Positions 1,419 to 12,687 of a DNA stretch of 30,152 nt are shown one piece after another. A program made the position numbers and the translations under genes. The notes under the pieces were generated by a model. That model ran no database searches. It was not told the origin of the DNA and worked only from the letters and a program-made list of their open reading frames with translations. This stretch comes from an uncultured Thermotogae bacterium (GTDB lineage Bacteria; Bipolaricaulota; Bipolaricaulia; UBA7950; UBA9294), in the NCBI GenBank assembly GCA_964494835.1, contig CAZBSW010000001.1, positions 1 through 30,152 on the forward strand, written 5' to 3'. Positions within the stretch are counted from its first letter, which is position 1; each line of letters opens with the position of its first letter.

Positions 1419-1441
1419 TGAGGAGCTCAGGGGACTCGAAC
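1419..1441 (-). repeat. Degenerate tRNA 3'-end fragment (Ala-like), possible att remnant at the island edge
   Basis: Minus strand GTTCGAGTCCCCTGAGCTCCTCA = T-loop + 3' T-stem + acceptor 3' strand resembling ...AGCTCCACCA; no matching 5' tRNA half nearby. Confidence 0.5.
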
Positions 1442-1510
1442 TCACCTGCTCTTCCTGGTGCCGCAAGAAAATATAACCTAATGAGAGTGACAAGCACCCC
1501 TTGACACGCC

Positions 1511-1576
1511 TACCGCCGTCGCTTGGCAAAAGGGTTCAAGAGCACTCTCCACCTCCTCGCAACAACAGGAACCCTC
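1511..1576 (-). repeat. Repeat A copy 1: 3' end of recombinase gene plus foreign arm
   Basis: 1511-1559 matches 7280-7328 at 43/49 nt (encodes EEVESALEPFCQATAV); 1561-1576 (aacaacaggaaccctc) matches copy 2 but not the recombinase. Confidence 0.9.
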
Positions 1577-1587
1577 CCGAGCCTCAA

Positions 1588-1617
1588 TTGACTTCCTATT
1601 TGCCATGTGCGTATGTT
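1588..1617 (+). promoter_or_regulatory. Putative sigma70 promoter of cassette gene
   Basis: TTGACT-N18-TATGTT, upstream of RBS AAAGGAGG and ATG 1658. Confidence 0.4.
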
Positions 1618-1657
1618 CTCTGTGATGTGTTCTGAGGATGGTATCAAAGGAGGACAA

Positions 1658-2674
1658 ATGAAAGGACGACGAACAGTCATGTTGGTCGCGGGGCTCCTGG
1701 TGCTTATTCTCCTCAGTTGGGGATCAGTTGCCAAGATTACGATGACGGACGCTGCCAAAAAGCGCTTTGCCGATAATGCCGTATACAAACAAGCTTTGGA
1801 GATCGTTAAGGAACTGGGCGTTGAAATAGAGACGTTACCAGACGGCACTGGTGTTTCGATGACGACCACTTGGGAACGGCTCGCGACTGCCAAGATGAAC
1901 GGCAAGGATTATGAGGTAGTCCTCGATGTCGGCGACGGCCATCCATGTTTGATCTACCAGACGCTCACGGACACTACACCTACAGGCGTGAGAATCATAT
2001 TTACATCTATGGGTAGAATGGGCTGGGGAGAGGTCAACCTCCAAGCAGAAGGCGCAGCAGACGAATTGGCGCGCGTCTTGTACAGTTTCTTGCGAGAGGC
2101 TGTGCTTCAACGCGAGTGTTGGGAGAGACAGACTAACCCGCAAGCGGGGAAGTGCGCAATTGAAGCGGCAACTCCTTTTGCAAACGACCAGCTGCTCGTG
2201 ACCGACACCCACTATGCCCTTTTCGACCAGGCGCTGACGGAACTAAGAAAGCCCACCCTTGCCGTCCTTGAAATAACGACGAAGACTGCGGCGGGGCCTA
2301 CGACCAAAACGATTTCCCCGGGGGTGTCTAAAGTCACGGTCACGGCTGGAGATGAGATACGCTTCGCTGTGTACGGTCCTCTGAATCACCAATACACGGT
2401 ATTTCAGTCCATTCTTCTTGCGAATAAACCAGAAGATGCAGATGGATACCTTGGCACCAAGACAGGCCTCTGTGAGATAAGGAGTCTGCCAATCGTGGGT
2501 GTATTGGGCATCAGTGGGGCTGTCTTCACGTATAGCGTGCCAACGACTGACGCCTCTGGGAACCCTCCGGCCGGTAAGTACTACCTACAGGTCGCGATTG
2601 CCAAAAGCGATACGACGTTCGCTACTGCAGGAGACTGCCATGTGACGAACATCATCGAGATCGTGGTGAAGTAG
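1658..2674 (+). CDS. Hypothetical exported protein (signal peptide), sole gene between repeat A copies 1 and 2
   Basis: Strong RBS before ATG 1658; MKGRR + hydrophobic stretch + SVA|K cleavage-like site; Thr-rich, beta-sandwich-like C-terminal part; no family recognised. Confidence 0.75.
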   Translation: MKGRRTVMLVAGLLVLILLSWGSVAKITMTDAAKKRFADNAVYKQALEIVKELGVEIETLPDGTGVSMTTTWERLATAKMNGKDYEVVLDVGDGHPCLIYQTLTDTTPTGVRIIFTSMGRMGWGEVNLQAEGAADELARVLYSFLREAVLQRECWERQTNPQAGKCAIEAATPFANDQLLVTDTHYALFDQALTELRKPTLAVLEITTKTAAGPTTKTISPGVSKVTVTAGDEIRFAVYGPLNHQYTVFQSILLANKPEDADGYLGTKTGLCEIRSLPIVGVLGISGAVFTYSVPTTDASGNPPAGKYYLQVAIAKSDTTFATAGDCHVTNIIEIVVK

Positions 2675-2755
2675 CGAACGAAAGTAGCAGTCTACCGAAG
2701 TGTCCCTGACGGTCTTCTAGTTATCGTTCCTTGTAGTTTCTTCCTTGGACTGTGA

Positions 2756-2816
2756 CCGTCGCTTGACGAAAGGATTTAAGAGCGCTCTCCACCTCTTCGC
2801 AACATCAGGAACCTTC
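2756..2816 (-). repeat. Repeat A copy 2: 3' end of recombinase gene plus foreign arm
   Basis: 2756-2799 matches 7285-7328 at 38/44 nt (encodes EEVESALKSFRQAT); arm aacatcaggaaccttc is 14/16 identical to the copy 1 arm. Confidence 0.9.
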
Positions 2817-2850
2817 AGTTGCGTGCGACGCCATTGGTCTATCTTAACAG

Positions 2851-3825
2851 CTATCGGGGCTGATTTGCTGTGTATTCTCGAACATCCATCTTTGAATCCT
2901 CTGCGAAACGAGCTACGAGGTTCGGTGTTCGTGTCTGCGATGGTTTGCAACAGTCGCCGGCTTGCTTCCAGACTAATTCAGAAAATGGATGGAAAGAACC
3001 CGGAGCGATGGGCACAGATGGGCGCCAGTGATGATATACTAAGGCGTTGAGCCTCATGCCAGGATTATCCATGCTCTGTGTATAGAACCAATTGCACCAG
3101 ACGACCGCACTGACCATATCATGTGTGAGATTCCCGTACTCATCAGGAAGGAAGAAACTGCCGGGGGTATGAAGCCCCTGTATCGCCCATGGGAAGTTCT
3201 CTTCCAAGTTCGGATCTCCCATTGAGGCACCATAAAGAGCCAGTTCAGCGTCTCGCGACTTGACACGGTGATCGCCCGGGAACACGAAGAAGACCAAAGG
3301 ACTGCCCGTCTCTTTGTACTTCGTGTACTTCTCAGAGAGGCGATCTGCGATCTTCTTAGCCTTATCCCCAGCGTCTGTGTACCCGCGATTGTCCCAGGGC
3401 CAAAACGTTCGGCTAGGAGTGAAAGACATGAATGCGTCAGCAAGGAAGATCTTATCATCAATCCGGAAAGAAAGGTCTGGGCGCAGGTCTCCGTAATTGG
3501 TCGGGTGGTATGTAGGATGGAGCATAAGCCTGTGTAGCAACTCATATGCAACAAACTCTCGAAGGTTGGCTGCGAAGTCGGTTTCATCATTCCTTGTAAT
3601 CCCATTGAGGAATGCTGTTCTCTGTGACACAGAGAGACGCTGGAGGGTCTTCTCAAGGACCCGGAGAGTTTCCATAGCATCTGCATCTTCCTCCGATACT
3701 AGCCACGCTATGGCGGGCCATCTATCCTTCACAGCAGTCAACGCATCTTGCAAAGTATTCATCCCAGGCTCCATTCTACCGGACATCGGAGCAAGCTTGA
3801 TACTTGTTCCGTAATTCCTTCCCAA
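2851..3825 (-). CDS. Hypothetical protein, possibly PD-(D/E)xK nuclease-like
   Basis: 324-codon ORF; real start may be ATG 3762 (GGAG upstream). REFVAYELL...RPDLSF...FLADAF...EKYTKY loosely resembles the PD-(D/E)xK core. Confidence 0.6.
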   Translation of the reverse strand: MGRNYGTSIKLAPMSGRMEPGMNTLQDALTAVKDRWPAIAWLVSEEDADAMETLRVLEKTLQRLSVSQRTAFLNGITRNDETDFAANLREFVAYELLHRLMLHPTYHPTNYGDLRPDLSFRIDDKIFLADAFMSFTPSRTFWPWDNRGYTDAGDKAKKIADRLSEKYTKYKETGSPLVFFVFPGDHRVKSRDAELALYGASMGDPNLEENFPWAIQGLHTPGSFFLPDEYGNLTHDMVSAVVWCNWFYTQSMDNPGMRLNALVYHHWRPSVPIAPGSFHPFSELVWKQAGDCCKPSQTRTPNLVARFAEDSKMDVREYTANQPR

Positions 3826-3950
3826 ATCTGAATCAAGTCTGAGTATATGGTCATCCTAACTAGGATATCGGTCCGGAACAGCTTCGTTATAGTTTCTCTC
3901 ACCAGTCTGGAGTGACCCCCTAAGACTTGACTGGTGGAACTGGAAGTCAG

Positions 3951-4320
3951 TCCGCTGCACGTAGCGGTGCGCCAACGGTTGAGCTTGGACGGTGGTGAAC
4001 ACATGGTCGCATTAGCCACACTGCGCCGCCTGGCGCTCTCTCCAGCTTCTCAGGCGGTCGATATCGGCCTCAGCCACCCAGAGGTACGATCCCCCCCCCT
4101 TGCTCCCTTTGCCTTGGCGAACTATTAGCTTGCCCGTGGTGAGATTGAGGTCCTGCCACTTCAAGGCGGTCACTTCTGCTACTCGAAGACCAGTGTTGAG
4201 CATTAATCGGAGCATAGTCCCGTTACGCTCACCGGTGGGGTAACGAGGGTTAGGCTGCTCCAAGAGCCGCTCTTGTTCCTCTTCTGTCAGAACTGTAGGG
4301 AGAGTTTTCGCCCTGGGCAT
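3951..4320 (-). pseudogene. Truncated paralog of the tyrosine recombinase (N-terminal ~60%)
   Basis: MPRAKTLPTVLTEEEQERLLEQPNPRYPTGERNG...GLRVAEV is near-identical to 7268-7864; G9 tract at 4091-4099, CAG>TAA stop at 4012-4014, homology ends after YVQR at 3951; lacks HxxR, H and Tyr. Confidence 0.9.
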
Positions 4321-4331
4321 CTTTCCTCCTT

Positions 4332-5594
4332 TCATTGTTGATGCCGCATAAGATTACGGGCTACAAACTCATTGAAGGTATATGCGTCGTAAATGATGTT
4401 CATAGGGCCGTTGGTCTCGATTTCCTTTATGACGGCTAGAAACGTGGAGGAGGTTAGTGAAGCTGTATGATACAAGTCGAGGAGCGGCTCTTCTAAGGAT
4501 TCTGCAAGCATTCTAAAGTCCGGGGGAAATGCGGGGGATACGAGAATTCTGGTTGCTCTATCTCTGTCTTCTAACGCCCAACACGAAGCTACCCAGGGCA
4601 AGTAATGCTTGAATATGAAGAGCTTTTCCCAAGCTTCGCGTTTGCGCTTTACCCAAACACTTCTTTGTGCCCAGAAGCAAGGAAGACGTGCAAGGAAGTC
4701 GAGAGGCAATACCGAGGCATATGGCGTATGCGCCGGGGTGAAGTAGTCAACATAGGTGGGGCCGCAAATATCAGCCGTTAGCATGGTTGCAAATGATTCA
4801 TTTAGGCAACTGAGCGCTAAAGAATCGACCAGTGGGCCTGCCAATTCAAAAGATAGATGCTGGCAATGAGTAAGGCGCTTAAAGATAAAATGGTACAGAT
4901 AGAAATGCACTACTTCATGTATGATAATTATTTGGGCTTGATTTTGCAGAGCGGCTAGATCTAATAAGCGCGGTAGACTACTCGCCGCACTGTGCTGAAT
5001 GAAAAGATATGCTCTATCGTCGTCTGGATTAAAGACAAGCCGTCCCGAAGACGGGAGAGGTTCGGGAACAAATGATAATGGGAGATGATACCACGGTGGC
5101 GAGAGGGACAAGCTTGCATCAGAAGGATTTGGGGAAGGCGCGAGTTTCCTAACAACGTTAATGACGTGCGGTTGTGTATTGGCTGCGACGAGCACATCAT
5201 AGAAGAAGCGGTCGAACCCCAATTGATGTAGTAGCTGGACAACATATCTTCCGAGAAATGAATCAATATTGAGGTCTGCTGAGGATGGAACACCGTCAAG
5301 ATCTGGCTGGTATCGGTTCTTAAACGGCTGGTTTTTGAATAAGGGGATATCTTTGTATAACGAGCCTTTTTGCTTATAGGGATATTCCCTGTAGCGGTAG
5401 CCCATACCTGACAGGAGTATCTTGTGACGATTTGATACCTGCTCATCAGTCAAGGACTCATCGTGCGGTAAATTTAGATGTGTATATACTACCGCCCTGG
5501 TGATCTCGGCATGAGTGAAATGCCTAACTTCACGAAGTACGGAAATGTATCTAGCCTCATCGAAAATGTGCTGATCTGGCGTATCTTGTTGCAC
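4332..5594 (-). CDS. HExxH zinc-metallopeptidase-like hypothetical protein
   Basis: IIIHEVVH followed 35 aa later by LNESFA (gluzincin-like third ligand); likely start GTG 5594 after AGGAG (track ORF extends to 5681). Confidence 0.65.
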   Translation of the reverse strand: MQQDTPDQHIFDEARYISVLREVRHFTHAEITRAVVYTHLNLPHDESLTDEQVSNRHKILLSGMGYRYREYPYKQKGSLYKDIPLFKNQPFKNRYQPDLDGVPSSADLNIDSFLGRYVVQLLHQLGFDRFFYDVLVAANTQPHVINVVRKLAPSPNPSDASLSLSPPWYHLPLSFVPEPLPSSGRLVFNPDDDRAYLFIQHSAASSLPRLLDLAALQNQAQIIIIHEVVHFYLYHFIFKRLTHCQHLSFELAGPLVDSLALSCLNESFATMLTADICGPTYVDYFTPAHTPYASVLPLDFLARLPCFWAQRSVWVKRKREAWEKLFIFKHYLPWVASCWALEDRDRATRILVSPAFPPDFRMLAESLEEPLLDLYHTASLTSSTFLAVIKEIETNGPMNIIYDAYTFNEFVARNLMRHQQ

Positions 5595-5789
5595 GATGCG
5601 GTAACTCCTGCCCGTGAAATAAAAAAACACAGGAAAGAACGTTCGAATTCTCAGTATAGGATGGTGGAGACATTGCGTCAACTACACATGTGTCCAACTT
5701 ACAAGTGTCCCGATAGGTAGTCTCTTGCAGATAGCGCGGCGGTAAGAAGGGCCAATTCGAAGAAGCTGATGAATGACGATGCATAGATA

Positions 5790-6449
5790 TTAAGATAACT
5801 CGGGCAGGTTAGTGGGCGAGTGCTTCTCAAAGTTCTTCTTTTGGCACGAGTCAACAACAATTGAACTATTGGGAGAATCAAAAATGAGCTTAATCTCCCA
5901 TCCTGTTACAGTCGGAGCGTTGGTTGACTGAACAGTGACAGTCATTGTAAGAACAACATTATCAGAAGAGTTCTGATCGATCAGAGCCGTCCATATACCA
6001 TCAACGACAGACCAGTAGAACAGTTTATGATCGTAAATTAAGAAAGCACAAAATTGAACGTATGCACGTGGAAGAATAGGGATTTCATAGTCTGATATGT
6101 CAGTGCTCAAAGAAATACCGAACGCGGAAGGAGAGACCCAAAGCCCAGGAGCGGACACGTTGATCTTATCTTGCAGCAGAGTGAAAAAAAGCAGCGGGAG
6201 ACAATCCCGAGCCTCCCGCGCTCCTAGGTTCTTTGCTGTTAGATACCAGTATTTAGCAACAGTAGTTGCTTCCTCGCCGCTCTCAACAAAAGGGGGCCAC
6301 TGCTCAGGCGAGAAAGGCCCGTACATAGAGCGGATGCTCTTGTAGACTTTTATCCGTGGGCGGTGCTTCAACTCCAGGATTTGATTTATAGCCGCACCGA
6401 GAGCAATACTACCGAGCCCGACTACCGTTGGTATAATCCATGCGCTCAT
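5790..6449 (-). CDS. Hypothetical membrane-anchored protein
   Basis: N-terminal hydrophobic helix (WIIPTVVGLGSIALGAAI) followed by basic residues; 219 aa. Confidence 0.65.
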   Translation of the reverse strand: MSAWIIPTVVGLGSIALGAAINQILELKHRPRIKVYKSIRSMYGPFSPEQWPPFVESGEEATTVAKYWYLTAKNLGAREARDCLPLLFFTLLQDKINVSAPGLWVSPSAFGISLSTDISDYEIPILPRAYVQFCAFLIYDHKLFYWSVVDGIWTALIDQNSSDNVVLTMTVTVQSTNAPTVTGWEIKLIFDSPNSSIVVDSCQKKNFEKHSPTNLPELS

Positions 6450-6473
6450 TGTTGTCGCATCCGTTTCTCTTTC

Positions 6474-6710
6474 CTAACCAACCTTTTTCTCGATGCGTCT
6501 TCCTGCCCTCTTGAGATGTTCTACGTCCGCGTGAGTTGTTGCAGGTTCGCGGCCAGCAATCTCTGAAAAGAAACCATCTAACGCTTGATCAATGAGTTTA
6601 CCCATTGGCACCCCAGTGTTCTTTGCAAGTTGTTGCAGGAACATCACGTTATCTTCAGCTAGATATGTGGTCATGCGACGACGCCTCCATGCTCGGAGCA
6701 CTTCAGACAT
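6474..6710 (-). CDS. Ribbon-helix-helix (CopG/Arc-like) DNA-binding protein
   Basis: RRRMTTYL beta-strand + EDNVMFLQQLAKNTG + MGKLIDQALDGF helices; AGGAGGT RBS before ATG 6710. Confidence 0.7.
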   Translation of the reverse strand: MSEVLRAWRRRRMTTYLAEDNVMFLQQLAKNTGVPMGKLIDQALDGFFSEIAGREPATTHADVEHLKRAGRRIEKKVG

Positions 6711-6817
6711 AGCAACCACCTCCTGCATACGGGGGTGCGTGAAGCAATGGGCTCTGTTCCTTCTTTGGTGTTGTGTCGTCTTCTATACGGGCACAGCACA
6801 TCACGGAGATGGTGCAT
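6671..6817 (-). CDS. Small Cys/His-rich ORF (48 aa), possible Zn-binding peptide
   Basis: TAAGGAGGT RBS just before ATG 6817; MHHLRDVLCPYRRRH...CRRWLLCLKCSEHGGVVA*; overlaps the RHH start by 40 nt; absent from the track (<60 aa). Confidence 0.35.
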   Translation of the reverse strand: MHHLRDVLCPYRRRHNTKEGTEPIASRTPVCRRWLLCLKCSEHGGVVA

Positions 6818-7056
6818 AGGTACCTCCTTATTCCGCGATCTAACAGGCACGAGGCTCCCCTTTTCATTTCAGTATCAGAAATAGGGTATTTGGCCATTAT
6901 GAGCGGGGGCCTTGCCCCGCCAGTGAATGACCGAGGGGGAGAGCGGGCCTTGTAAACCAATACTTGACTTAAAGACCCACCCTGCACTCCTCGACTCTCG
7001 CCCTACCGTCACCTCCTCCTGCCCCCGCGCGCAATGTCATATATTGGGCTACTAGT

Positions 7057-7085
7057 AGTATACGATACGCCGCACATAATGTCAA
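7057..7085 (-). promoter_or_regulatory. Near-consensus sigma70 promoter of the RHH cargo operon
   Basis: TTGACA (7085-7080)-N17-TATACT (7062-7057). Confidence 0.75.
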
Positions 7086-7267
7086 GTGTGTGCTTAATAT
7101 CAACATACAATAGCTGCTGGTCGTTGTCTAAAGATATGCTGCTATTTATAGGCAAATGAAACGCACATTCCGCTGGTGGAGAGAAAGCTCTCCGAAGATT
7201 TAAGTTGCTGCGTTCCCGGTAATGTTTGCTATAAACTGACACGTCGCGTTTCTAGACCCGTCTAATC

Positions 7268-7864
7268 CTATGTCACTATTACCGCCGTTGCTTGGCGAAA
7301 GGATTTGAGAGCACTCTCTACCTCCTCGTCGAAGATGTGGGTATAGATCATCGTCGTGGACAGGTCCGAGTGTCCAAGCACTTTCTGAACCAGGCGGATC
7401 TTGCTGGTCTCGCGATAGAGATCCGTAGCGAAAGAGTGGCGTAAGGTGTGCGGTGAGACGTCCTTGTCGATTCCCGCCTTGGTTGCGTACCGCTTCACCA
7501 TCCGCTGCACGTATCGATGTCCCAACGGTTGACCTTCTAGCGTAGTGAACACATGCTCGCACTGGCCACACTGCCCCGCCTGGCGCTCTCTCCAGCCCCT
7601 CAGACGGTCGATATCGGCCTCCGCAATCCAGAGTGTACGATCTTTGCTTCCCTTTCCCTGGCACACCAGTAGCTTGCCCGTAGTGAGATTGAGATCCTGC
7701 CACTTTAGGGACGTCACCTCCGCCAACCGTAGCCCCGTGTTGAGCATCAACCGGAGCAGCGTTCCGTTGCGCTCACCAGTGGGGTAGCGATGGTTGGGTT
7801 GTTCCAGTAGTCGCTCTTGTTCTTCTTCTGTCAGAACTGTAGGGAGTTTCTTCGGTGTTGCCAC
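7268..7864 (-). CDS. Tyrosine recombinase, catalytic domain only (198 aa)
   Basis: All catalytic residues present: GLR (R), GKG (K), HTLRH (HxxR), LGH (H), IYTH (Y). GTG 7864 after AGGAGG; begins at the LPxVL..EE linker, so there is no N-terminal core-binding domain. Confidence 0.95.
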   Translation of the reverse strand: MATPKKLPTVLTEEEQERLLEQPNHRYPTGERNGTLLRLMLNTGLRLAEVTSLKWQDLNLTTGKLLVCQGKGSKDRTLWIAEADIDRLRGWRERQAGQCGQCEHVFTTLEGQPLGHRYVQRMVKRYATKAGIDKDVSPHTLRHSFATDLYRETSKIRLVQKVLGHSDLSTTMIYTHIFDEEVESALKSFRQATAVIVT

Positions 7865-7921
7865 GTCTCCTCCTTTCCTTTCCATGACCGTATAATACAC
7901 ATTTTACGGCCTGTATCACTC

Positions 7922-7950
7922 GACATACAAGGGTCTTCGTTCCATGTCAA
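7922..7950 (-). promoter_or_regulatory. Putative recombinase promoter
   Basis: TTGACA (7950-7945)-N17-TATGTC (7927-7922). Confidence 0.55.
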
Positions 7951-8060
7951 GAGAAAGCGGCCTCATTCACAAGGGAGGATATGGGAGGATTCACCCTGCA
8001 GATCACCCAAGAAGGCCCTTTTTCGGAGGGTATACAAACCACCAAAGGGGACAGTAGAGG

Positions 8061-8087
8061 GGGATAACGGGGCTCTCAGTCGATTGC
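8061..8087 (+). repeat. Repeat B copy 1
   Basis: gggataacggggctctcagtcgattgc, 25/27 identical to 9629-9655. Confidence 0.85.
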
Positions 8088-8206
8088 GTTTATACATCCC
8101 TTAGAAAGAGATCCTTTACCCAGCCAATTCGAAAAGCATTGTGGAAATAAGGATGTCACTAGTGGGTGGGTTCGCCGCCCTGGACAGGTCAGGATTCTGA
8201 GCGCAT

Positions 8207-9427
8207 TCAAGTATCGCTCTTCTTGTACTCGAACCCTTTAACAATGTTCCTAAACCTAAGAAGCTCATGCTTGCGCAGCAGCATCTCGCTAACTGACATC
8301 GACCCTTCCGCAAGCAATTGGAAATCAGCCTTTTCGACTACCAGGACGCTACAGCCGTCCTGATGGAACCACCGTAACAGGGTGAGTCTGGCGTCCTTGA
8401 CAAGATCCTTGGACTGCGTCCCACTGATGCCACTCTTGGCGAAGAGGACGCCACACTTACATTTATGAAAACGCATCTTTGCTACGAAGTGATTCACCTC
8501 CTTTGCCCCAACTGCCCCAGTAGTGTCTTTTTCCCAGTTCTTGCATTCAACAAGGAACGCCCGCCCCAGTGCCTCAAGCATGTAAGAATTCCCAAATGAC
8601 TGCTGAACCACGATGAGATCAGACTCAGAGTCGGGGGTTGTTACGTTCCGTAGAACACGCGCACCTGGGAGAGTTTGCAACAGATATGCTGCAAAGTCCT
8701 CTAGGCGACGCCCCTTTTCGTCGTTGGTAATTCCCCTCTCATCCAGCCGGTCACACAAATGCTGCACGAAAGGACGGTTGAGTGGAACCTCCTCAGTGCC
8801 TATGTGGGGCGGTTGCAGAGGTAATTCCTGTTCTGTAAGCGTAACAGCGATTGTCTCAGGAAAGTACCACAAGTCATTGCTAGACTTATAGGCACCTTTC
8901 GTTTTCTTCTCAATCGCTTTCAGCACCGATGGCGGCATATTGAAGGCGAGACGCAATGTGGTAGCTGCTGGGCCTGCTACAGGACGAGCATCAGTTTTCT
9001 CCATGGACTGTAGAACGTCCTCAATGAAAGCGAGAGTGAAGAACCACCTGGCTATATACCTTTGCCCAAGGTTCAGATAGAAGATCCCAGCCTGGTGTGT
9101 GAAGCTCCCTTTGTGATACCTTTCCGGGAGCTTAAGCTGAAGACTGCATATGTGATGATATAGCCAGACGGTCAGATTAGTAATAGCCTGAAGCGAGAAT
9201 TTTTGACTACTAAGCTCCTTGACTACGCCCACAAAGGCTTTCCACAGCTCCGCATCATCTGGGCCTGGGGATATCATCCCATCATCGAGACCAACATGCT
9301 TTTCCAGAAGGGAGATCACGGATGAAATGTCTCCACGGAGGGTCTCAGGCTTCTCAAGCAAACCTTTTACTTCCTTGACAAGCTGTTCAGAGGGCGAGTT
9401 CGAACACATTCTTCGGTCATCTCCCAT
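8207..9427 (-). CDS. Mrr-like / PD-(D/E)xK restriction-endonuclease-domain protein
   Basis: C-terminal LEDFAAYLL...ESDLIV...FLVECKNW...VGAKEVNHF...GVLFAKSGIS fits the Mrr catalytic domain pattern; helical N-terminal half. ATG 9427 preferred (GTG 9430 also in frame). Confidence 0.8.
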   Translation of the reverse strand: MGDDRRMCSNSPSEQLVKEVKGLLEKPETLRGDISSVISLLEKHVGLDDGMISPGPDDAELWKAFVGVVKELSSQKFSLQAITNLTVWLYHHICSLQLKLPERYHKGSFTHQAGIFYLNLGQRYIARWFFTLAFIEDVLQSMEKTDARPVAGPAATTLRLAFNMPPSVLKAIEKKTKGAYKSSNDLWYFPETIAVTLTEQELPLQPPHIGTEEVPLNRPFVQHLCDRLDERGITNDEKGRRLEDFAAYLLQTLPGARVLRNVTTPDSESDLIVVQQSFGNSYMLEALGRAFLVECKNWEKDTTGAVGAKEVNHFVAKMRFHKCKCGVLFAKSGISGTQSKDLVKDARLTLLRWFHQDGCSVLVVEKADFQLLAEGSMSVSEMLLRKHELLRFRNIVKGFEYKKSDT

Positions 9428-9433
9428 CACTCA

Positions 9434-9463
9434 AGTATAGCAGAGGGCCCTCCGGCCTGGCAA
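9434..9463 (-). promoter_or_regulatory. Promoter consistent with a leaderless transcript of the Mrr-like gene
   Basis: TTGCCA-N18-TATACT with extended TGn; -10 ends 6 nt before ATG 9427; no SD. Confidence 0.5.
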
Positions 9464-9628
9464 TTCCGCATAAGGGCTAGTTTTTCTTTAACAGTTCCAC
9501 TCCGAACATGCCTTACGCAACAAGAGAAGCCTTTCGTTGTAGGACCGATGTAACATAAGAGACATTTTCTATAACGTCAGAAAACTTCCGACTTGACCCT
9601 ATCTTGACCCCTCTCAGGACTGGCGCCG

Positions 9629-9655
9629 GGAATAACGAGGCTCTCAGTCGATTGC
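9629..9655 (+). repeat. Repeat B copy 2
   Basis: ggaataacgaggctctcagtcgattgc, 25/27 identical to 8061-8087. Confidence 0.85.
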
Positions 9656-9698
9656 TGGCGTGCTATCGCATCTGCGCCTACTCCATATCGAGCTTGCG

Positions 9699-9727
9699 TT
9701 CACAAACAGAGCATCAGTTACTATACT
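9699..9727 (+). promoter_or_regulatory. Putative promoter of the PKD lipoprotein
   Basis: TTCACA-N17-TATACT. Confidence 0.55.
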
Positions 9728-9746
9728 CTCACATGGGGTGATTGCA

Positions 9747-10637
9747 ATGCGGAGGAAGGGTATTACTTGGTTGATCATTGTTGGGGCGCTGTTTCTGGCT
9801 GGTTGCAATCGGATTCCGTCGGCACTGTTCTCTGTTGACCATCTGGATGGACGATCTCCTCTGACCGTCATGTTCGACGGAGCCCTCTCCAATGATCCTG
9901 ATGGCGAGATAGTCGCCTATGAGTGGGATTTTGGTGACGGCACTTATGCTTCTGAGGCGCAGGTAACGCACACGTTCTCAACTGACACCGATTGCAACTT
10001 CAAGGTACGGCTCACAGTCACAGATGATCAGGGGGCAACAAACTCACATACCGCTACGATACACGTGCGAGGAGCGAATACCCCTCCAGAGCCAGGAGAG
10101 GTTCTCTTCTTTGACGATTTCGAGGATGGAGACGCTGATTGGGTATCAACCACTTCTGGCTGGGGGACGGACAATGGCGAATATGTCCTCTACGTTGGAA
10201 TTATGCAACCAGCCACACAGTACACCTTCGTGCTCGATGGGAAGAACTGGTCGAACTACATGATCGACGCCGACGTTTGGATCTCTGGAGGTGCGAGGGC
10301 TATTGGATTCATCTTCTACGCGCAGGAGAACCTCAACAGCTACGTAATCGCATGGGGCAGCACAGGAAAGATCTGGTGGGAAGTTTATTCCAACGGCGAC
10401 AAGATCTATGAAAGCGACCCAGTCGAGCCAGGCCTCTTTGCCAATGACCAACAGCACATCGAAGTAACAGCTAGCGGAAACACTTATAGCTACATCGTCA
10501 ATGGCCTTACTCGAAGCACCTTCGAGAACACGTATTACACAACTGGTATGCCCGGTCTTGCTGGGTACAACGGAACACCAATGATGTGGCCGTACCCTTT
10601 CGGTGTGGATAACTTTCGTGTGACAGCACTGCAATAG
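9747..10637 (+). CDS. PKD-domain lipoprotein with C-terminal beta-sandwich (LamG/DUF1080-like) domain
   Basis: Lipobox LAGC; PKD motifs SNDPDGEIVAYEWDFGDG and VRLTVTDDQG; LFFDDFEDG...NWSNYMIDADV...VDNFRV. Confidence 0.85.
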   Translation: MRRKGITWLIIVGALFLAGCNRIPSALFSVDHLDGRSPLTVMFDGALSNDPDGEIVAYEWDFGDGTYASEAQVTHTFSTDTDCNFKVRLTVTDDQGATNSHTATIHVRGANTPPEPGEVLFFDDFEDGDADWVSTTSGWGTDNGEYVLYVGIMQPATQYTFVLDGKNWSNYMIDADVWISGGARAIGFIFYAQENLNSYVIAWGSTGKIWWEVYSNGDKIYESDPVEPGLFANDQQHIEVTASGNTYSYIVNGLTRSTFENTYYTTGMPGLAGYNGTPMMWPYPFGVDNFRVTALQ

Positions 10638-10862
10638 AGCACTCTGTGCATAGGAGCGGGGGGAGGCGAGCACTCGCAACATCCGCCGTCTTCTGTTGCC
10701 AAAGCCGGTTTCTCTCAGCCTGGTAGGTAGCGGGGCTCAAGACAGAACCTTCCGAGGGGGAACGGGGTTACACCTTGTTTCTTGCATGCCGGTTCTCGTC
10801 TTCAACGTGCTTAACGATCTGACTTAGAGTGGATGAATGTAATCCGCGGGGGCAAATGAAAG

Positions 10863-10880
10863 GCGGGACCAAGGTCCCGC
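10863..10880. terminator. Hairpin, probable terminator between convergent PKD and tRNA transcripts
   Basis: GCGGGACC-AA-GGTCCCGC perfect 8-bp inverted repeat with pyrimidine-rich flanks on both strands. Confidence 0.6.
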
Positions 10881-10886
10881 GCTTCC

Positions 10887-10903
10887 TTTACCCCCGATCA
10901 GGA
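10887..10903 (-). repeat. Short degenerate copy of the tRNA-Arg 3' end
   Basis: tttacccccga (11 nt) identical to 11219-11229, then tcagga vs gagga. Confidence 0.45.
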
Positions 10904-11076
10904 TGGCGGCAACTCCTTGCGCAGCAATGAGTTGCTTGAGAGTCTGCGTGCGCAGACTCTTGAAGGATCGTGCGACAAGTAGCTTGCGAGTTGTGCTTCG
11001 CAGAACTCGATCCTACGATGTGCGTTCGAATCTTCCCGGCTACAAGAGAGGGCAGCTTTGCTACCCTCATCACGAA

Positions 11077-11101
11077 TACCCCCGAGAGGATTCGTAACCT
11101 C
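11077..11101 (-). repeat. Copy of the tRNA-Arg 3' end
   Basis: tacccccgagaggattcg identical (18 nt) to 11221-11238, continuing aacctc after a 1-nt insertion. Confidence 0.85.
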
Positions 11102-11220
11102 GGCTGTTCTTCGAACAGCTTATGAGTTTTGCACCTGCAAAACTCACGGAAGATCTCACCACTCGAGGGAAAGCAAAGGTGGAACAGGTCCCTTGTGCAG
11201 ACCCTGCCCCACCTTCGCTT

Positions 11221-11294
<74 letters not shown>

Positions 11295-12225: not shown

Positions 12226-12687
12226 ATGAAGGAGCAAGGGTATGAATACCTACGAGAGCTGGGTCTTAACCCAACCATGCAGCGCCTTGCGGTATTGGAG
12301 CATCTGAATAGACATCGTACTCATCCAACTACTGAGGAAGTATACATGGCCGTGCGAAAGCGCCATCCGACGATCTCCAAGGCGACGGTATACAACGTAC
12401 TCGATGCGCTGAAACAGGCGGGAGCACTGCAAGAACTGACGATCGAACGGCAAGCGGCCCGATATGACATCAATGTAGCTCCGCATCCTCATTTCCTCTG
12501 CCGCCAATGTGGAAGGCTTTATGATGTGGATATTCCTTGTGCAATCAGACCGGGAGATATGGTCGACGGACACAGGACGGAGTCGGTGCAGACTTATATC
12601 TTTGGCGTCTGCGCACAGTGTGGCGCTAATAATATCAATTCTAATTCCTTGCAGGGCAAAGGATCGCAGGAGGACTTAGGTGCCTGA
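12226..12687 (+). CDS. perR: Fur-family regulator, PerR-like
   Basis: HPTTEEVY, ISKATVYNVL, HPHFLCRQCG and CAQC Zn sites; upstream Per box; heads a peroxide-defence cluster. Confidence 0.85.
   Translation: MKEQGYEYLRELGLNPTMQRLAVLEHLNRHRTHPTTEEVYMAVRKRHPTISKATVYNVLDALKQAGALQELTIERQAARYDINVAPHPHFLCRQCGRLYDVDIPCAIRPGDMVDGHRTESVQTYIFGVCAQCGANNINSNSLQGKGSQEDLGA

Follow-up and report, generated by a model that had tools for sequence, protein, structure and literature searches.

The stretch of DNA considered here, hereafter the window, is an entire 30-kb contig (30,152 nucleotides (nt); CAZBSW010000001.1 in GCA_964494835.1) of a metagenome-assembled genome (MAG) of 2.1 Mb and 74% completeness, from an uncultured Thermotogae bacterium placed by GTDB in the Bipolaricaulota. 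It holds a variable, tRNA-linked island, running from position 11220 to about 1416, in which the gene for a short tyrosine recombinase is accompanied by two further copies of its own 3' end (repeat O, with orphans O1 and O2) and in which modules lie between sites of uniform orientation resembling the dif sites of Xer recombinases (Table 1). The array has very probably been shaped by site-specific recombination. At issue below are which of its repeated sequences was the crossover site and which merely travelled with it.

Table 1. Features of the island and its borders (positions in the window)
Feature	Position	Strand	Remarks
Accessory Xer-clade tyrosine recombinase, 198 amino acids (aa), catalytic domain only	7268..7864	-	PF00589
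Gene copy of repeat O	7279..7328	-	22 nt of coding tail plus 28-nt element S (7279-7306)
Orphan O2	2750..2799	-	S part 2750-2777, 5 mismatches, right end lost
Orphan O1	1510..1559	-	S part 1510-1537, 3 mismatches
Dif-like site aCGCAACTGAA-GGTTCC-TGATGTTGCGA (arm of O2)	2797..2824	-	2 mismatches to 20 specified bases
Half dif-like site, spacer GGTTCC and right arm TGTTGTTGCGA (arm of O1)	1557..1573	-	
Weaker dif-like site CTACAACGAAA-GGCTTC-TCTTGTTGCGT	9515..9542	-	6 mismatches
Dif-like site TGGCAACAGAA-GACGGC-GGATGTTGCGA	10674..10701	-	520 nt downstream of tRNA-Arg
Integrase-specific 11-6-11 palindrome AGGCCGTAAAA-TGTGTA-TTATACGGTCA	7885..7912	-	ends 21 nt before the start codon
Dead paralog of the integrase, with only the 5' part present (aa 3-122)	3951..4336	-	TAA stop, G9 frameshift
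Protein with N-terminal hydrophobic leader, without family match; cargo of the 1,240-bp module	1658..2674	+	
Cargo open reading frames (ORFs) of the 4.5-kb unit	2851..7242	-	7009-7242, 6703-6987, 5790-6449, 4332-5681, 2851-3825
PKD-domain protein, single-gene module between two dif-like sites	9660..10637	+	
Mrr-type nuclease gene	8207..9430	-	bracketed by 39-nt repeats 8049-8087 and 9617-9655
tRNA-Arg(CCT), island anchor	11221..11294	-	18-nt repeat from its 3' end at 11077-11094
Displaced tRNA-Ala(GGC) 3' fragment	1422..1441	-	69 nt past O1

The recombinase and the copies of its 3' end

The 198-aa protein matches PF00589 with an E value of 5e-42 over profile positions 2-171 of 172 and, by motif reading, has the R-K-H-R-H-Y catalytic set of the Xer clade (R46, K74, H139, R142, H165 and Y174). 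XerC, XerD and XerA are its top NCBIfam and PDB matches, with every score under the family cut-off (for the NCBIfam XerC/XerD models 163-167 vs cut-offs of 330-335). An N-terminal core-binding (SAM-like) domain was not found in it with Pfam, and its alignment to XerC starts at residue 99.

A preliminary description of this DNA had pointed to a threefold repeat, and blastn bears this out, with the last 49 nt of the recombinase gene (7280-7328) matching 1511-1559 at 88% (E 1e-11) and 2756-2799 at 86% (E 6e-9). Extended into the sequence that precedes the orphans, the family in the window comprises 1516-1576, 2756-2816 (87%) and 7285-7345 (67% over 61 nt), the last value being low because the gene copy diverges within this arm; a fourth copy was not found in the 2.1-Mb assembly. 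Both orphans indeed lose their match to the gene at one and the same base, the third of codon D179, five codons past the catalytic Tyr174, and the units delimited by the repeats measure 1,240 and 4,529 bp as had been described. The upstream arm that the two orphans have in common (GGTTCCTG(T/A)TGTTG) is equally real, but it is not the private arm of an integrating element for which it had been taken, being half of a dif-like Xer site found throughout the family. The dead paralog reported from the larger unit also stands: it matches aa 3-122 at 82% identity, and its frameshift is positioned at a run of nine Gs (4092-4100).

The 95 nt past O1 (1416-1510), which include the displaced tRNA-Ala fragment, are homologous to DNA directly 3' of intact integrases at four other loci (L124, L125, L126 and L129), where the integrase with its O is followed immediately by this flank, an arrangement like the empty-site allele that had been called for. 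Variable cargo between copies, likewise anticipated, is seen at L133, where the integrase with its O, 2.3 kb of unrelated cargo and a dif-like site with O follow one another.

Within O, the 28 nt that overlap the integrase stop codon (S, AAATCCTTTCGCCAAGCGACGGCGGTAG) deserve separate consideration. Synonymous heterozygosity is 0.44-0.49 along the gene, but of 179 ten-codon windows the lowest, codons 187-196, has 0.18 (permutation p<1e-5). The 3' end of the gene thus behaves as constrained DNA, as it would in a self-targeting integrase; S is functional DNA, and it may be a second junction site. Across six orphans S has mismatches at 13/168 positions and the 22 nt adjoining it on the left at 29/132, whereas the window's own O1 and O2 show the reverse, with S less well kept than the adjacent 22 nt. 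Because S has decayed in the window, the array there is probably a fossil. All 62 S sites in the fetched loci are in direct orientation, near-identical integrases switch to unrelated DNA 3-10 nt past S, and in a second integrase subfamily a unit of about 700 bp with sharp ends occurs in at least five contexts. At L187 a tRNA-Gln gene abuts a lone S and, 1.6 kb on, stands an integrase with an S of its own. The symmetry of S is weakly dyad about a putative 7-nt centre that reads AAGCAAC in the gene vs AAGCGAC in the orphans. A dif-like site at a fixed distance past S was looked for and none was found except at L195, and by eye S showed no convincing similarity to the arms of either dif or the integrase palindrome. 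Its left half (ATCCTTTC) is similar to the anti-Shine-Dalgarno end of 16S rRNA, and the ribosome-binding site of the integrase itself, GAAAGGAGG, is complementary to this half. A constrained element of this kind at an integrase stop codon is a puzzle separate from that of the array.

Dif-like sites and the lineage's own Xer

The arm of the orphans corresponds to the spacer and the right arm of an 11-6-11 palindrome of 28 bp, TCGCAACAnAA-N6-TTnTGTTGCGA. A fuzzy search with the three longest versions of the arm gave 31 matches in 1.73 Mb of fetched loci, and none with the pattern reversed; the window by itself has three dif-like sites and one half site vs 0.6 matches expected in shuffles. The site beside O2 overlaps that orphan by its final 3 nt (CGA). 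Spacers fall into recurrent classes. That of the weaker site, GGCTTC, is also present in L179, L085, L132 and L195, with L194 matching at 84%; GACGGC lies upstream of the integrase in at least six locus groups (L124, L129, L134, L152/L154, L158 and L179), and in L124 and L152 it stands 70 nt past a tRNA-Arg gene; GGTTYC sites are downstream of the integrase, at 2-4 kb, in L124, L133, L137, L179 and L187. The order of these classes around integrases varies between loci, and all the dif-like sites around related integrases are on the integrase strand.

Elsewhere in the same MAG (contig C190) there is a perfect 28-bp palindrome, TCGCAACAAAA-GTGCCC-TTTTGTTGCGA (L007:266-293), 62 nt upstream of a gene for a 206-aa protein with PF00589 only (site and gene together, 266-975), to which the 198-aa accessory integrase is 35% identical. 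Related genomes likewise have perfect copies adjoining this second short recombinase. The palindrome looks like the organism's dif, since it adjoins a near-universal Xer, and we infer that the two are probably the lineage's system for dimer resolution because neither G008 nor the single-contig genome G024 has any tyrosine recombinase other than a short Xer of this type, and each has exactly one site, beside that gene. Among genomes of the family, 73 of 74 have the site, 39 of them in exactly one copy. All ten genomes with matches to the integrase tail carry 3-27 dif-like sites, and at least three are carried by 10 of the other 64 (Fisher p 3e-7, for genomes that are kin).

Two features by which dif modules or IMEX-like arrays are recognized are thus present in the window: module boundaries have the 11-6-11 form and are similar to the host dif, and the same classes of site bound different cargo elsewhere, that cargo being unrelated except for PKD proteins. 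From the tRNA-Arg side the island comprises a module of 1.1 kb with the PKD protein, a 6.7-kb block with the Mrr-like gene, the integrase and 4-5 ORFs without family match, and the 1.24-kb module with its one exported-protein gene.

The integrase has, in addition, a palindrome of its own with other arms, located in its 5' leader. Its general form is AGGCCGTAAAA-N6-TTATGCGGCCT, with one per integrase gene at about 40 loci, and in relatives also it is about 21 nt from the start codon. In the second subfamily the arms are AGTACGC/GCGTACT (AGTACG vs AGGCCG), and a half-site at the left module boundary covaries with them while the left half of S is unchanged. A third half-site of the palindrome, within the motif GTGAATnAGGCCGCTTT at 7957-7970, overlaps the -35 box. 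The covarying arms and the half-site at the -35 box suggest autoregulation or a cognate site.

How the array may have arisen

We put at roughly 0.5, an even chance, the reading in which the island is a set of modules bounded by dif-like sites and the repeated integrase tail is a relic travelling beside the real site. Of the two sequences the dif-like site is the better candidate for the crossover. Tyrosine recombinases cut at the borders of the spacer. Arm and tail have CGA alone in common where they meet, on the outer edge of the dif arm; given this position and the 3-nt microhomology, rather than a junction at the spacer border, the fusion appears to have come about by deletion. The 198-aa enzyme would be an accessory Xer paralog, and arrays of imperfect dif-like sites would move about together with it. 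A deletion at the CGA microhomology would have joined a GGTTCC dif-like site to the 61 nt at the end of a truncated integrase gene, and O1 and O2 would be copies of this one old composite, which was duplicated as the 1.24-kb module with its single gene came in, or was exchanged, at that dif-like site. The tail would be mainly a passenger adjoining the crossover site. Entry at the dif-like site would explain why the left arm is good at O2, the left junction, and missing at O1, the right one. The data themselves show the dif-like sites and where they occur, the graded truncation of integrase remnants and the constraint on S; which enzyme cuts which site, and in what order these events took place, we infer.

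Several points weigh against this. Both recombination partners must already have carried the composite of dif-like site and tail. That the window and L133 share an integrase with O and, beyond unrelated cargo, a dif-like site with O is explained at least equally well by cassettes that use O or S. At O1 the half site has no recognisable left arm, and the site at 9515 is weak. The arms of the integrase palindrome (AGGCCG...) differ from those of the dif-like sites, and the 198-aa enzyme may not act on sites of the TCGCAAC type. The kinship of the genomes overstates the association statistics. Excision or circle junctions at O or at dif-like sites were not seen in contigs assembled at about 5x (Logan), where the sole relevant joint, in run X2, connects 7309 to 11221 (the 3' end of tRNA-Arg to S), with one side of 26 nt, and may be another organism's.

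Is the integrase tail itself the attachment site? The preliminary description had the integrase targeting its own gene, and a narrower version would have S, within O, as the attachment site, with circles bearing a dif-preceded O integrating there twice, the gene being restored each time and the older copy pushed downstream. We consider this improbable, though a good deal speaks for it: the synonymous diversity of S, lowest in the gene (0.18 vs about 0.45), its better preservation than the adjoining 22 nt in the six orphans, the uniformly direct orientation of all 62 copies, the divergence of near-identical integrases 3-10 nt past it in at least five contexts, the L124-type contigs with the O1 flank directly after the integrase and its O, the layout of L133 with different cargo, the tRNA-Gln gene abutting a lone S in L187, and the X2 contig with its 26-nt side. 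The remnants in relatives tell against it. Loci fetched by protein hold 66 full integrase genes, 36 3' fragments and 3 5' fragments, the breakpoints of which are many and range from q69 to q554. A single breakpoint set by crossover for all displaced 3' ends, as self-targeting would require, is not what is found, q537 being common only to the window (two copies), L133 and G003. Across genomes the same downstream flank follows differently truncated genes (full/full/q511, q479/q553 and q451/q554), and this erosion, with variable breakpoints and in part at orthologous flanks, is the pattern that the self-targeting proposal had itself named as its refutation. The weak dyad symmetry of S tells in the same direction, as do the different putative centres in gene and orphans and the lack of the right end of S in O2. 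The left half of S stays constant while the palindrome arms change between integrase subfamilies, so that the integrase is not obviously the binder of S. A dead paralog lies inside the larger unit, which shows the units to have had an integrase of their own at one time. What survives of self-targeting, then, is the constraint on S, the switch past S and the empty-site-like allele; the private arm and the single breakpoint fall away, leaving the proposal unproven.

Another explanation dispenses with cassettes. Elements with integrases would have accumulated next to tRNA genes and been worn away by deletions, and a 77-nt repeat of dif-like site and tail would have been doubled by unequal crossing-over or segmental duplication, with no cassette having entered at either repeat. 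Inherited remnants would account for junction classes common to related genomes (q396 in L044/L115, q447-451 in L040/L053 and q196-208 in L172/L174), and the CGA microhomology junction, the dead paralog and the want of junction reads all accord with decay; O1 and O2 differ by 13%, from which their duplication is old. Passive decay, however, does not account for several observations, and we doubt that it is the answer. The window and L133 hold unrelated cargo inside the same conserved boundaries, 3' fragments outnumber 5' fragments 12:1, and S is constrained in orphans; the dif-like sites, for their part, all point one way, fall into recurring spacer classes and co-occur with the integrase family.

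The composite of a GGTTYC dif-like site and the tail from q537, on which the preferred dif-module reading leans, is also present in G003:C120, from the same genus, and at L133:9387-9469, and in L201 a dif-like site abuts a tail that starts near q270. In its exact form, arm plus O was found among 184 genomes of the class as the window's two copies and that of G003 alone; in metagenome contigs it had no matches, the pattern being too strict (the L133 variant differs from it at three positions), and a megablast against plasmids gave no match. Immediately to the left of the integrase module L156 and L157 are unlike each other, but as mosaics with no clean indel. At its most ambitious the dif-module reading would make this a cassette platform in a Bipolaricaulota chromosome, with an accessory Xer paralog, arrays of dif-like sites with heterospecific 6-nt spacers in semi-fixed order, and S as a self-overlapping second entry site behind the gene. 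That is a speculative and rather unlikely extension; were it true, heterospecific spacers would let modules be swapped without deletion of their neighbours.

Known systems, cargo and tRNA genes

The nearest parallel is with the dif (pdif) modules of Acinetobacter (PMC12907356, PMC11705084, PMC9947245), which are similarly short, have 28-bp 11-6-11 sites like the host dif and variable cargo, and whose mobility is, as here, inferred from comparative mosaics. Unlike theirs, the sites here are all direct and belong to an island in the chromosome that is linked to a tRNA gene; in place of XerC/XerD the host has one 206-aa Xer, with a dedicated accessory paralog co-occurring, and the cargo is surface proteins or proteins without family match instead of resistance genes. 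Integrative mobile elements exploiting Xer (IMEX), among them the CTX, TLC and VGJ phages, the gonococcal island and Legionella LME-1 (PMC9765430), also integrate at dif-type sites and form tandem arrays, and one arm of their attachment sites can be degenerate, as it is at O1. The sites here, by contrast, are distinct from the chromosomal dif and have other central spacers, and the modules are of 1-7 kb and without phage genes. One recombinase gene beside its palindromic site is the layout of XerS/difSL, XerH/difH and XerA/dif (PMC1914069, PMC2965235, PMC2731167, PMC5357621), and the accessory integrase repeats it with its own palindrome; unlike XerS, XerH and XerA, both enzymes here are of about 200 aa and lack the N-terminal core-binding domain.

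With integrons there is in common a recombinase and adjacent promoter-poor cassettes in one orientation, but the array here is downstream of the recombinase gene. By profile scores the integrase is not of the IntI type (TIGR02249, 133 bits vs a cut-off of 265; NF011946, 104 vs 435), and an attC-like hairpin in arm plus O was rejected, single-stranded DNA folds of four copies having z of -0.56 to +0.49. Were S the site, an attachment site overlapping coding sequence would recall the SSV-type (fusellovirus) integrases and the integration-dependent immunity phages with attP inside the gene; unlike in the SSV type the gene is unsplit, and just its last few codons would be exchanged. SSV-type splitting as the source of the N-terminal dead paralog and the C-terminal fragments was dropped, as their breakpoints do not coincide.

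If the dif-like sites are active, the chromosome of this bacterium, from an uncultured phylum, would house a system of the dif-module or IMEX type, worked by Xer enzymes of about 200 aa without a DNA-clamping N-terminal domain and with a dedicated accessory paralog. That bears on the minimal size of a tyrosine recombinase and on the shuffling of variable surface and defence genes outside integrons.

As to cargo, the single gene of the 1,240-bp unit, that of the exported protein described earlier, is on the plus strand, which is a correction. The ORFs of the 4.5-kb unit had no match in Pfam, NCBIfam or PADLOC. PKD-domain surface proteins are beside related integrases too (L131, L128, L136, L141, L147, L084 and L161); for the remaining cargo genes of the window there was no homolog in any fetched locus. 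The 39-nt direct repeats around the Mrr-like gene are 82% identical and enclose it alone. This repeat belongs to a conserved block upstream of integrases that in relatives runs into degenerate tRNA-Ala-like sequence on the opposite strand; the tRNA-like block was rejected as a gene and is a degenerate tRNA-Ala relic (tRNAs only with Rfam and ARAGORN).

The tRNA-Arg gene with repeats of its 3' end beside it is what an island that targets a tRNA gene would have. In congeners (G001, G002, G003 and G005) tRNA-Ala(GGC) is intact, and in several of them the contig ends at that gene, suggestive of a second, variable hotspot for integration. At L136 two full copies of tRNA-Thr(TGT) (3380-3453 and 12500-12572) flank 9 kb that hold a related integrase.

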